The notes beneath the pieces were generated by a model that ran no database searches, was not told the origin of the DNA, and was given only the letters and a program-made list of their open reading frames with translations. From the NCBI GenBank assembly GCA_964016885.1, contig OZ024742.1, positions 317,192,001-317,256,000 of the forward strand: 64,000 bases of DNA. Reading direction: 5' to 3'. Below, in pieces: positions 2,585 through 63,383 of the stretch. Origin of the DNA: Eledone cirrhosa. Taxonomy: Eukaryota. Every line of letters begins with the position of its first letter. Positions within the stretch are counted from its first letter, which is position 1. Made by a program: the position numbers and the translations under genes.

Positions 2585-3465
2585 TTGATAAACACAAATA
2601 CCAACATATTCATATTTGTATTGTAAATGACCAGGTTAGCTAGATTGAAATATACTAATAATAATAATACATTTTGGCCTGTCTCGATTTAAGATAATAA
2701 ATCAATAAAAACAAATCATATTGGCAATGGCCGTAGTGCTTGGACAAATTTAAATTTCAAAATCAAACCTGTTCCGTAGACAGGTTTAAACGTTAAAATC
2801 CAAATATGTTTCGAATAATGAAAAAGTGAAAGAATACCGCATTTTGATCTCCTCAGCAAGCACTATAAAAATTAGTATGTTTCACTTCAAAATATTTAGA
2901 AAGACTGATCAACGCACATGGTATTTCACGCGGTTATCCAGTGTCTAGCTGTCACATACTCGTGCTGCTAGAAATAACAGCCGTTTGTATGGGGCTAAAT
3001 TCAGCTCAACAAAGGAGCAGTGATACTATCAATAATAATGAGTTCAAAACTCAGGCAGTCTTTTACTTTGCTGTTATTTCTAGCAGCACGAGTATGTGAC
3101 AGCTAGACACTGGATAACCGCGTGAAATACCATGTGCGTTGATCAGTCTTTCTAAATATTTTGAAGTGAAACATACCAATTGTTATAGTGCTTGCTGAGG
3201 AGATCAAAATGCGGTATTCTTTCACTTTTTCATTATTCGAAACATATTTGGATTTTAACGTTTAAACCTGTCTACGGAACAGGTTTGATTTTGAAATTTA
3301 AATTTGTCCAAGCACTACGGCCATTGCCAATATGATTTGTTTTTATTGATTTATTATCTTAAATCGAGACAGGCAAAATGTATTATTATTATTAGTATAT
3401 TTCAATCTAGCTAACCTGGTCATTTACAATACAAATATGAATATGTTGGTATTTGTGTTTATCAA
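2585..3465. repeat. Long inverted repeat, ~397-bp arms (2585-2981, 3070-3465), 88-bp spacer
   Basis: Arms are near-perfect reverse complements, only a few differences by eye. Confidence 0.95.
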
Positions 3466-3497
3466 ATATATTAATTTACATTAACTTGTATATATAT

Positions 3498-3873
3498 ATA
3501 TACTATAAATACATTTATGTATATACATCGCTATTTTAGAGCACCAATACTAATACTTAATTTTTGCTGGACCGGCAATCGCTCTGTGTAATCAGCTCCT
3601 GGTTATTACTGGAATTCTATAAGAATCCAGCTTCTATAATTTTCGGCAAAGGCTAGGTAGTGCGTGGTTTTGATAAACGGCAAACAACGAGAAACAGATT
3701 GACAGCTTCTCTCACTGCCTTTGCCAAAAATAAGTAAGTGACATAGTCACTACTTTAAAACTAGTAGTGAATGGTCTTCTAAATGTTTTTTTGATTAAAC
3801 ATACGGTATATTGCCAAATATACTATACATACATTCATGTATACATCGCTATTTCAGAGCAACAATATTAATA
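3498..3873. repeat. ~57-bp direct repeats (3498-3555, 3818-3873) bounding a ~320-bp unit in (TA)n
   Basis: atatactata.atacatt.atgt..atacatcgctattt.agagca.caata.taata occurs twice. Confidence 0.75.
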
Positions 3874-3916
3874 TATATATGTATATATATATATATAAAT
3901 ATATATATATATATAT

Positions 3917-4600
3917 TCAATGCAAGGGGATGCAGAACAATTATATGAAAGACGTAAAATAAGAAAATTATAAAAATTAACTTACTTACTAAAATTTCCG
4001 AATGGAACGCATGGAGAAACCTTTCGTCATCAGGAAGCTCATTCTCAGCTAAGTTACCAGGCGATGCGTGGACACAGGGAACTTATACAAAAATAATTCA
4101 GTGGATGGAAAAAAGCAAGCGTGGACTAAATTCCAAACATTGAAAAAATCACTGCCTACTTGGTCGGTGGCAAATTCAAAAGAATCAATCACGTGACATC
4201 GAGGTTAATGTTGAGCAAAAATTTGCCGAAACTGCTACTATAGTTCATAGTAATGGCTCGGCCACTGTCTTTTTAACACCCCACTCCTCACTGATTAACC
4301 TCGATGTCACGTGATTGATTCTTTTAAATTTGCCACCGACCAAGTAGGCAGTGATTTTTTCAATGTCTTGGAATTTAGTCCACGCTTGCTTTTTTCCATC
4401 CACTGAATTATTTTTGTATAAGTTCCCTGTGTCCATGCATCGCCTGGTAACTTAGCTGAGAATGAGCTTCCTGATTACGAAAGGTTTCTCCATGCGTTCC
4501 ATTCGGAAACCATGTTTATTCCCTTTCAGAAACTAATTACTTGGAGTGAAATTTTAGTAAGTAAGTTAATTTTTATAATTTTCTTATTTCACGTCTTTCA
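3917..4600. mobile_element. PLE pLTR family C as a fold-back (arms ~3946-4209 and ~4294-4600)
   Basis: Arms are reverse complements, the left lacking ~38 bp; (TA)n on both sides; diverged relative at 58063-58686. HHR-like CTGATGA-CGAA..TTCG-GAAA at 3995-4033(-) and a mutated copy at 4471-4509(+). Confidence 0.8.
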
Positions 4601-4621
4601 TATATATATATATACACACAC

Positions 4622-60415: not shown

Positions 60416-60427
60416 TATATATATATA

Positions 60428-60550
60428 AACAAAGAAATTGTGGTAATAAACCAGGTAGACCATAACGCACCAGAGTAGATACTTAGGGTAGTTTGGATCT
60501 ATTTGTCGAAACGGCCGGAGCTCAGCCGTCGGGGTCCTGACTCTTTTCTT
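60428..60550. mobile_element. Family A, two oppositely oriented segments
   Basis: 60428-60491 is minus and ~60498-60550 is plus; (TA)n flanks. Confidence 0.75.
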
Positions 60551-60582
60551 ATATATATAAATATATATAGAAGTAGTAACCA

Positions 60583-61448
60583 AACAGTTAGTTTACCATA
60601 CCGAGAACAATTGTTTCACCTTATGCGGATCTTCAGCTCGGACTGGTCTTGGTTATACGGAACAGGGAGAACAACCGTATGAACGCCCATGCGCAGAAAC
60701 GGTGACTTCACCCAAGCGATACAAAACCACGGTGAAAGGTGTAAGGGAGATAACTGTGAAAGTCCGGAATAAAATGCTCGAGTTGATTAAAAAATTAGAA
60801 TGTTGTTGTTATTCAATCTGGAGCTTTGTAGTTATTCATGAGGTGTTTCCAGACATGTGGACAACGTGAGAAGATTTCATTTCCTGAATTTAGGCAATCG
60901 CCATTCCGTAATCTCCTTAGAATATTTATCATTTCTTCAATACACAGTCCACAAGACGGATTTCCCCTTGCCTATGGCTTCGACTTAGTGATGGCTTTCC
61001 ATTGAATAGAGTAGTCTATACCTGAGTCTTTGGGGGACCATATGTGGCTCAGGAGCTTCGTGGGTGATCGTTTGTCCAGGTATCTAAAGGTCGACTGATG
61101 GTTCAGAAAGCGTTCCTTAAATCGGCTTGAAGCTTGTCCTCTTCAACAGCAATGCAACAGACCCGTTGTAGTGTATGAAGCTGTGGTCACTTCCAACCGA
61201 CCAAATCAACCACAGGAGGTCAAATCCTATGTGGGTATGGCGGAGGGTTAGGGTTAAGTTAGGGTTATATCTTTCGCAGTTACTCCCCTTACACCTTTCC
61301 CCCGTGGTTTTATATCGCTTGGGGGAAGTGACCGTTTCTGCGCAGGCGCGTTCATACGGTTGCTCTTCTTGTTCTGTATAACCATGACCAGTCCGAGCTG
61401 ATCCGCATAAGGTGAAACAATTGTTCTCAGTATGGTGAACTAACTGTT
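60583..61448 (-). mobile_element. PLE family B: split GIY-YIG between inverted pLTRs (60583-60762, 61271-61448)
   Basis: Minus 61124->60813 reads [42 protein letters not shown]; plus 61135-61248 reads [22 protein letters not shown]. Confidence 0.85.
60601..60641 (-). ncRNA. Minimal hammerhead ribozyme, intact core
   Basis: RC: CCGAG-CTGAAGA-T-CC-gcataa-GG-T-GAAA-CAATTG-TT-CTCGG; the mirror copy at 61393-61430 lacks 3 nt of core. Confidence 0.8.
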
Positions 61449-63158
61449 GTGTTTCCATTTCTACCAAACTCGTCCCATGGACTGAGTGCTCTACCACTAC
61501 GGATATTACCTTCCAGTGTTCTACCTCTCTCTCTCTATATATATATATATATATATATATATATATACATATATATATATATATATATATATATATATAT
61601 ATATATATATATATATATATATATATATATATATATATATATATATATATATATATATATACATACATATTTATATATATGTGAAACCTAAACTATATAT
61701 ACAAATTTGTGTGTATCAGTGTAACGTCAGTCGATTTTCTTTTAACAGTAATTTTGGTTCTGAATTCATTGTTTATATAAATTTCATATAAATATCTTGT
61801 TTTGAAAGTTTGAGATAATAGTGACTGGTTGCCTTGGAATGTTTCTCAATCCGTGACTATGTCATCACATAATGTATAAGTTCAGAAGAGCATTGACAGT
61901 GTATTTAAATATAACTATAGAAAAACAGGAAGCTAAAACTGTGAATGTGTGTATGTGTGTATGCCTACGTGTTTATTTAAATTGTAAGGTGGGAAAAGCA
62001 TAGCATTGAAAGACAGTGTGAGGAAGAGAAATCTTACCAAAGGCGGGAAAGAGTAAAACAATGAGAAAGAAAGTATTGAAGGGAACAGAAATAATAAAAT
62101 GTTCAAAAGAAACAAAAACAATGAATAAATGATTTAAAGAGAACAGAAAAGTAAGACATAAATAAGTAACAAATTGATGAATATAATTTTGTTTAAGAGG
62201 TAAATCTAAACACAAAATAATAATATGAAATCTTACTATTTCTTTTGCTTGTGATTCATTTAATAATTCTTATTGGAATTAAAGAGATTTAATTTACTTG
62301 TATGTTTTGCCTCCGGCATTCTGTGGTGCTTTAGCAATTGTTTAAGTATTATATTTCCCAAAACATATTCCTACTCCCGAACCACACCATGTTTTATAGC
62401 GAGACACACTGTTCTTTGGAGAAGTCGTTACTTTAACGCAGAAAAGTTTTCGCGCTTTTTCCGACATTGTGTGGCTTCCAATTTCACTTGGTGGTATTGC
62501 ACCCACGATATGATAATAAGAATGATGGATCTTCCACTGATTTTTGACGATGAGTATTTAGTTTTTCTGTCAACTGAGCCTCTAACTCATGACTTGATGT
62601 GTAAATGAACAAATATTCTACAGACACTTGTATCTTTTACTTAATTTTCACAAGGCTTATCCTTTGAACTAGAGTATACTCAATGGAATGTTAGGAAAAG
62701 CTGTATCTGTCTATTGAATTTTGTTCTGATACATTGAGTCGGCCCAAGGTGTTACTCACTGGGATCGAAACCGGAACTTTATGATTCGGAAGCGAAATTC
62801 TTAAATATTCAACCATGTTGCGAATGCTCAGCCATTTTCACGTTAATTTAATCTACAACTGAAATAAATATTTTCGAAACTGACGGCTGTCCATTTTCTA
62901 TTTCTCGCGTGTACCTTATTTTACATTTACTTTGTGATATTAGCAATTCTTTCATCACTACTTCGTCAAGTATAGGGAATTCGTTGACTTTGAAGATATC
63001 TGACAATAGAGAAATATGTCCGTTTTCAAAGCTATTATTCAAAGCAATGACTGTGGTTATATTATTCCGGGGCTCTATAGAATAACAATGTCGTATTTCA
63101 TATTTTCCTACAAAATTTATGATCATATATATATATATATATATATATATATATATAT

Positions 63159-63383
63159 ATAGGAAAAAGTATGACCCCGACGGCAGAGCTCAAGCCGTTT
63201 CGACGGCTATTTCTGGACGACAGTTAGTTTACCATACTGAGAACAGTCCAGAAATAGCCGTCGAAACGGCTTGAGCTCTGCCGTCGGGGTCATACTTTTT
63301 CCTATTTTCCACTCTACTACCCTAAGTATTGAGTACTCTGGTGCGTTATGGTCCATCTGGTTCCTTACCACAATTCCTTTGTT
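63159..63383. mobile_element. Family A fold-back, perfect 60-bp arms (63159-63218, 63246-63305)
   Basis: 27-nt loop derived from family B; (TA)n on both sides. Confidence 0.9.

Follow-up and report, generated by a model that had tools for sequence, protein, structure and literature searches.

How do the inverted repeats that crowd one stretch of the genome of Eledone cirrhosa arise, and from which element do their arms derive? The window, i.e. the whole stretch of 64,000 nucleotides analysed here (assembly GCA_964016885.1, contig OZ024742.1, forward-strand positions 317,192,001 to 317,256,000), had been interpreted from its letters alone, and 13 inverted units had been listed in that sequence-only reading; all 13 were recovered by self-comparison, in place or displaced by a few bases. 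With microsatellites masked, 56 inverted seeds scoring at least 16 were found in the window vs. 0 in each of five order-3 Markov controls. The arms were examined as candidate 3′ ends of Penelope-like elements (PLEs). Breakpoints had been described as different in each copy, which holds for the inner ones, whereas each family has two fixed sites for its outer ends, one with and one without a 3′ tail. A hairpin combines one end of each kind in 55 of the 56 pairs with both ends classifiable, and this counted pairing is new here.

Two fixed 3′ ends and their pairing

The 13 units represent nine families: A (units 13059 and 59797), B (44997, 57576, 60130 and 63159), C (3946), D (2585), E (9625), G (60583), H (45586), I (59056) and the unit 60259, which stands alone with a D-like tail. 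Genomic copies were collected as the top 15–30 matches per family (228–2318 candidates per family) and mapped on natural reference copies; 11 duplicate loci were dropped before the junctions of families A–E were counted. Two fixed 3′ ends were present in 7/7 mapped families, with tails of ~36 nt (A), 78 nt (B), 115 nt (C), 85 nt (D), 135 nt (E), 135 nt (H) and 90 nt (I).

Among 70 head-to-head junctions of families A–E, 55 were tailed/tail-less (partial tails being counted into the tailed class of family B), one was tailed/tailed, namely a 29-bp fragment, and none was tail-less/tail-less; in the other 14, which were unclassifiable, one end was off the locus or interrupted. For families H and I, tailed/tail-less pairing was seen by eye at 7/15 loci each. 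A literature search retrieved no counted tailed/tail-less rule, with older Drosophila Penelope work and paper supplements outside its reach.

In single copies either fixed site serves as the end, so the tail-less end is also used on its own. Of 111 insertions whose 5′ end was visible, 66 had an inverted partner; inverted insertions are about as common as single ones, and the fold-back, which had been called the dominant outcome, is a frequent one. Pairs were over-sampled, for which reason 'about half' is taken as the fair estimate.

If two independent insertions had followed one another, with the 5′ end of the first as the landing point of the second, like ends should often meet, and this was seen in 1/56 pairs. 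Such a history would moreover leave TA at the centre and uncoupled arm lengths, and for one pair a single 13-bp duplication surrounds both arms. Insertions of these families do accumulate in shared TA tracts, and tail-to-tail pairs split by TA exist (loci L158 and L163); as the source of the head-to-head pairs, we regard successive insertions as very improbable.

Fixed outer ends, TA flanks and the four families lacking a link to an open reading frame (ORF) could also suggest miniature inverted-repeat transposable elements (MITEs) or fold-back DNA transposons with terminal inverted repeats. The two ends are, however, different sites that differ by the tail, centres and lengths vary per copy, the inverted arm is missing in about half of the copies, and tandem units as well as reverse transcriptase (RT)/GIY-YIG frames run into the same ends. 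A real fixed-structure element in the window (42924–43092) looks different. This explanation was rejected in each of the eight families that had been checked in other genomic copies, and we hold it to be scarcely credible.

Recurrent start points were noticed in two families. Many of the single copies of family A (L006, L007, L008, L012, L014, L027) share a start ~325 nt before the tail-less end (window position ~15180), and the arms of family B form a cluster around −57; possible causes are RT stops or ends of the RNA.

Identity of the arms

That PLE 3′ ends make up the arms and face outward was borne out in the 9/13 units that are ORF-linked, where the arms pointed outward in 9/9. Judged by frames and motifs, the hairpins are confirmed as head-to-head pairs of 5′-truncated PLE 3′ ends, which among the ORF-linked families would mostly be of the Hydra clade. 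In family A, a broken, 5′-truncated PLE ORF (13196..14863, +) with one stop and frameshifts runs into the right arm and shows, in this order, a DKG motif, the RT, a Cys-rich linker and, C-terminally, a GIY-YIG nuclease with CxxC inside. Pfam gave RVT_1 at E = 5.6e-8 and GIY-YIG at E = 0.0098, the latter below the cut-off. With regard to the Neptune clade, which has a CX2-5CxxC linker ahead of a GIY-YIG nuclease with CCHH, DKG and the inner CxxC are present, but most copies have Cx4CPIR as their linker, with Cx4CPIC in 1/9 shown.

RT and GIY-YIG in one ORF were found in family A; families B, E, G and H are tied to nuclease or ORF pieces. Other genomic copies of B and E continue unbroken from the nuclease frame through the 3′ untranslated region (UTR) into the arm (L114 for B, L094 for E), unit 60583 of family G holds its own nuclease pieces, and family H has RWK and DKT in an ORF downstream at locus L206. 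RWK/DKT were thus seen directly in H and, for B, through homologs of its ORF (RW[KR] in 88, DK[TS] in 100 and the CxC linker in 117 among 120 listed), the N-termini of E and G not having been seen. A CxCX5C linker, no CCHH, and CxxC/CxH near E and N characterise the frames of B (L114, L130) and E (L094) and partly that of G; the nuclease of H gave a weak C-terminal match only. On these motifs and homologs, B, E, G and H are assigned to the Hydra clade. Families C (530 bp), D (547 bp) and I (~455 bp) consist of non-coding tandem units with the same build as the PLE pairs; tandems are present in C, D, I and H.

Hammerhead motifs were sought in the window and in a genome sample of 60 evenly spaced 10-kb stretches of the 3.0-Gb assembly, 39 of which came from its four largest contigs. 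With a strict descriptor, motifs were outward in 8/80 sampled hairpins and inward in 0/80, and the sampled 600 kb held 37 vs. 1 per shuffle. The motif in the left arm of family G (Table 1) was found by eye and missed by the strict descriptor, RNAfold giving stem I only (z −1.0); the copy in the right arm is degenerate, and the hammerhead of family H is irregular. Family A and the 3′ regions examined for B and E yielded none, and none came from Rfam. The window units of C, D and I gave no complete hammerhead by the strict descriptor, C and D holding core-like words without a closing stem I. Rfam returned nothing but sub-threshold microRNA matches, which fell on hairpins and microsatellites and were rejected.

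Arm polarity was additionally scored with a 3′-UTR library (outward/inward/none in 14/8/58 of 80 units); two library entries contained short interspersed elements (SINEs), and these totals were not used. The three non-SINE inward cases examined were neighbours arranged tail to tail with a TA tract between them and belong to a class of their own. Tail-to-tail PLE ends flanking one TA tract form a second, rarer kind of hairpin (L158:3947–4124, L163:2902–3154).

Junctions and mode of insertion

Arm lengths within a pair are coupled, lying within 60 nt of each other in 12/29 non-B pairs vs. 5.6 by permutation (p = 1e-4), as expected if a common RNA end or structure halts both copies. At the centres, overlaps of at least 3 nt were found in 17/32 insert-free joins vs. 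7% expected, BLAST overlaps overstating microhomology, and 23/55 centres carry inserts, several of them copied from nearby sequence. Such overlaps and templated inserts resemble microhomology-mediated end-joining.

Two routes to the hairpins had been offered in the sequence-only reading, two-ended priming and snap-back of the complementary DNA (cDNA); the former fits the counts and the latter is insufficient. A cDNA primed at the tailed site that folds back, copies itself and stops at the tail-less site, possibly nuclease-cut, would produce small loops, coupled arm lengths and central overlaps, and the tailed arm is indeed longer in 27/55 pairs. With a margin of more than 30 nt, the tailed arm is the longer in 12 and the tail-less arm in 15 of the 55 pairs, and in these 15, as in window unit 13059, the shorter arm has the tail that the longer arm lacks. 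Because a copy of a cDNA cannot hold a tail absent from its template, snap-back alone fails, and both target ends must therefore be joined at a start site. Single copies ending at either site also speak against it. As the sole route, snap-back is refuted; it may still contribute to some pairs or combine with a second priming event, and as the general explanation it is unlikely.

Self-priming on an antisense transcript, by which the inverted structure would be built prior to integration (Arkhipova et al. 2013), would give the head-to-head polarity, and palindromes occur at some centres (L026, L059, 11561–11594), as in the available text of PMC3846280. It offers no account of outer ends on two different fixed sites or of either arm being the longer, and it leaves most centres, which are unique to their locus, unexplained; in vitro, sense RNA is the template according to the accessible part of PMC11167929. 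We rate this route as improbable.

Assembly or amplification chimeras are the least probable source, to the point of being negligible. No listed unitig or restriction-site-associated DNA read spans a centre by 31 letters in each direction, and repeats swamp depth. The arms, however, show 1.2–3.3% divergence per family as well as indels, the ends keep to element boundaries at >55 loci, and the centre at 60146 is present in unitigs of three runs (depth 105–131), including a 37-nt unitig across the centre, these runs being from one sample of unspecified library type and possibly the assembly's own source.

It is probable, in our judgement, that each hairpin arose in a single insertion event, during which reverse transcription was primed by both nicked target strands, one per fixed site. 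The observations that bear on this are the family identity, the outward polarity, the two fixed ends and their complementary use, the variable 5′ breakpoints and the central overlaps or inserts. The GIY-YIG nuclease of the element, probably as a dimer, would nick both strands of a TA-rich target, and each 3′-OH would pair with a short TA-like stretch at one of the two start sites bounding the tail. Both cDNAs would end early, often near the same point, and microhomology-mediated end-joining by the host would connect their 3′ ends; priming at one end only would leave a single copy, tailed or tail-less. For the non-coding tandem families of 450–550 bp, copying in trans by this machinery is probable.

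Several points weigh against formation by two-ended priming in a single insertion. The junctions fit two annealing cDNAs and a self-folded cDNA plus second priming equally, and the microhomology at the centres is the overstated kind noted above. A shared RNA template is not demonstrated by the 46 shared vs. 138 unshared non-majority sites in 47 pairs, and in 24/47 pairs the arms are no closer to each other than to the nearest other copy. Systematic target duplications were not supported (6/55 vs. 1–4 in controls). Unit 45586 of family H is an exception that breaks the pairing rule, and no ORF was found adjacent to the C, D, I or 60259 units, which have no ORF link. The sampled loci are young and biased, as only top matches were taken, and the queries were biased as well, the A query favouring tail-less and the B query tailed matches, with the partner arm left free. 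In the text available from PMC11167929, the start site did not differ between strands, nor was any homology of it to the target seen.

A search for empty sites, aimed at whether TA tracts pre-exist, gave matches for 4/87 sites and no clean empty site.

Inverted units and other repeats in the window

The units are listed in Table 1. Arms range from 12 bp (60133–60144/60148–60159) and 13 bp (57575–57601) up to 834 bp (9624–10440/10728–11561, 96%). The proposed (TA)n context was confirmed for 11/13 units, in which a TA-type tract adjoins at least one side, directly or through a few (TG) or (AG) units; 57576 is outside any TA tract, and 9625 adjoins (AG)n/(AT)n on its left side only, with the right end interrupted by another element. 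Unit 44997 was corrected to an inner pair plus a separate third family B copy (45202–45332, +), which gives the weaker outer inverted repeat there.

Table 1 Inverted units and a hammerhead-like motif in the window (window positions; L numbers denote genomic loci)
Feature	Position	Left arm	Right arm	Remarks	Locus
Family D pair	2577..3488	2577–3069 (−), stops ~20 nt before tail-less end, at another PLE 3′ fragment	3070–3488 (+), tail-less end into TA	non-coding 547-bp tandem unit, 85-nt tail	L031
Family C pair	3916..4604	3916–4209 (−), retains ~30 nt of tail	4209–4604 (+), tail-less	non-coding 530-bp tandem unit, 115-nt tail, TA both sides	L056
Family E pair	9470..11562	9470–10729 (−), endonuclease C-terminus, 3′ UTR, tailed end	10704–11562 (+), interrupted by another PLE	Hydra-type PLE	L094 (ORF)
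Family A pair	13020..15507	13020–13195 (−), short, tailed	13196–15507 (+), long, tail-less	TA both sides	
Family B pair	44917..45111	44917–45055 (−), tailed	45058–45111 (+), tail-less	Hydra-type 3′ end, 78-nt tail	
Family H pair	45529..45909	45529–45688, start inside tail, continues ~55 nt beyond tail to ORF start	45687–45909, ends at tailed site	Hydra PLE	
Family B pair	57464..57657	57472–57587, with deletion	57589–57644	not in (TA)n; 13-bp target-site duplication around it	
Family I pair	59057..59668	59057–59142 (−), tail-less	59203–59668 (+), tailed	non-coding ~455-bp tandem unit, ~90-nt tail	L211
Family A mini-pair	59755..60036	59755–59930 (−), tailed	59930–60036 (+), tail-less		
Family B mini-pair	60053..60159	tailed	12 bp, tail-less	TA both sides	
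Non-coding pair (60259)	60160..60411	60160–60330 (−), tailed	60344–60411 (+), tail-less		
Family G pair	60568..61530	60568–61135 (−), endonuclease C-half and tail-less end	(+), endonuclease N-half ~61123–61245, jump, then 3′ UTR from 61271 to tailed end	Hydra-type	
Type I hammerhead-like motif	60601..60641 (−)			family G left arm, outward; 5-bp stem I, short stem II	
Family B pair	63161..63383	63161–63218 (−), tail-less	63245–63383 (+), tailed	TA both sides	L111

The family D pair has 401 paired bp with 3 mismatches, and the family A mini-pair is predicted to fold into a perfect stem of ~110 bp (−224 kcal/mol, z −33). The tail of the non-coding pair at 60160..60411 is 76–78% like that of family D. 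Around unit 57576, the duplication (57464–57476 = 57645–57657) encloses the whole pair.

Some further details of the units were recorded. The hairpin loop at 63220–63245 of a family B pair contains a 26-nt stretch belonging to family G, a template switch between families. Between the nuclease pieces of family G (60790–61245), the right-arm piece stops where the left-arm piece starts, as if a stretch already copied had been skipped, and two to three telomere-like hexamers (61246–61268) occupy the template jump of the right arm; this double motif was the only one among all genomic loci retrieved. A 56-bp direct duplication (59664–59719 and 60160–60215, 98%) surrounds the A and B hairpins, with a long TA tract after its first copy and none after the second or after other copies of the family, which hints that insertion may add TA repeats as well as target them. 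Fold-backs beyond the first list lie at 20597–20673, 60425–60552 and 11561–11594, the last being a palindrome of 17 bp that has no loop and sits where a PLE nuclease fragment has its 5′ end.

Repeats of other kinds are interspersed. A fixed-length element with ~30-bp terminal inverted repeats (42924–43092), several copies of which (L152, L159, L193) have TA at either end, is presumably a mariner-type MITE. An old imperfect inverted repeat (43510–43980, 70–85%) has the same structure in two other copies (L168) and is not of the PLE pair type. Several copies of one non-long-terminal-repeat (non-LTR) retrotransposon with apurinic/apyrimidinic endonuclease and RT (Pfam) occupy 22000–25400, 27200–33400 and 51900–56900, some followed by 4-bp tandem repeats. 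SINE-like copies of ~190 bp occur in both orientations (16254–16642, 19063–19511, 20481–20592) and form 85–90% inverted pairs 1–3 kb apart, a weaker potential source of double-stranded RNA (dsRNA); the SINE-like repeats of the window are reminiscent of octopus.

Genome-wide frequency and dsRNA potential

In the genome sample, 80 tight inverted units were found, corresponding to 13.3 per 100 kb vs. 17.2 in the window (0–6 per stretch); the window is ordinary for the genome in hairpin density. TA adjoined at least one side in 41/80 of these units vs. 14.5% background, and in 27/80 one arm adjoined TA with the other 30–125 nt from TA. Scaled from these 27 per 600 kb, an extrapolated ~10^5 such units would be present genome-wide.

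The dsRNA potential was assessed following Porath et al. (2017) by searching 50-mers for a near-perfect inverted match within 2 kb. Non-microsatellite matches were obtained for 99/7200 50-mers (1.4%) and microsatellite matches for another 120; TA-abutting inverted units held 85 of the 99, most of the 85 without family assignment. A same-strand control gave 22% of tiles, which was not understood, and was not used. For octopus, the available part of that paper (PMC5625713) reports a very high dsRNA potential of 4.4e-3 (0.44%), a value not directly comparable with the 1.4% found here because another assembly and other settings were used. As judged from their sequence, such pairs would be a large potential source of dsRNA if transcribed, and they are a putative ADAR or small interfering RNA substrate, as suggested in the sequence-only reading.

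A wider proposal is made tentatively, as something possible but short of probable: PLE integration would be built two-ended, with a dimer using the tailed site on one strand and the tail-less site on the other, from one RNA. Hairpins would then be routine, ~10^5 near-perfect fold-backs would supply most of the non-microsatellite long dsRNA potential, and the octopus excess of dsRNA and hyper-editing would be explained. The literature search found no report of PLE fold-backs in cephalopods or of a link to cephalopod dsRNA, supplements being outside its reach.

Comparison with known systems

The cited papers are compared through those parts of their text that were available. The layout itself is not new: an inverted copy, a one-sided tail and a (TA)n bias were already published, and the novelty first claimed for the window was overstated. 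Endonuclease-bearing PLE insertions described by Craig et al. 2021 (PMC8557442) likewise show 5′ truncation, partial tandems, an adjacent inverted 5′-truncated copy, an often one-sided tail, (TA)n bias and target duplications that are not discernible. Their tails of 30–40 bp compare with 36–135 nt here, longer than published in six of seven families, and their asymmetry is qualitative, whereas 55/56 pairs were counted here. How PLE inverted repeats and one-sided tails form is described there as an open question, on which the near-strict tailed/tail-less pairing sets a quantitative constraint.

The Hydra clade in the same paper (section 11) shares RWK, DKT, the CxCX5C linker, no CCHH, CxxC/CxH around E and N, a C-terminal nuclease, (TA)n insertion and occurrence in molluscs; it has canonical hammerheads, whereas here G has one, that of H is irregular and the 3′ regions of B and E gave none. 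The fold-backs are new families of a known kind of structure. The short non-coding tandems of C, D and I resemble non-LTR retrozymes, non-autonomous PLE derivatives (bioRxiv 10.64898/2026.07.22.740005), whose defining complete hammerhead was not found in C, D or I.

In Adineta vaga Penelope (Arkhipova et al. 2013, PMC3846280), head-to-head arrangements are also the commonest, the tail is on one inverted pseudo-long terminal repeat, palindromes and microhomology occur at junctions, and 9–10-bp duplications surround the whole unit. A few copies are present there vs. an estimated 10^5 hairpins here, and antisense self-priming is proposed, whereas the counts here favour two-ended priming. In the in vitro work on Poseidon PAc of Anolis (Frangieh et al. 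2024, PMC11167929), two RT start sites bound the tail, as here, both strands of an AT-rich target are cleaved and extended, and a dimer is predicted. Poseidon PAc belongs to a different clade, and the text available draws no link between start sites and inverted arms; the tailed/tail-less pairing ties the two in vitro start sites to the two genomic arms.

With regard to dsRNA, Porath et al. 2017 (PMC5625713) describe lizard Penelope as heavily edited and, in the part available, leave octopus out of the repeat analysis, naming no source repeat; the fold-backs are a concrete candidate for the exceptional octopus dsRNA potential reported there. The palindromic Harbinger of Xenopus, an ADAR substrate in that study, carries its palindrome in the consensus, whereas the PLE hairpin would be made at insertion; both are self-folding repeats and potential sources of near-perfect dsRNA.

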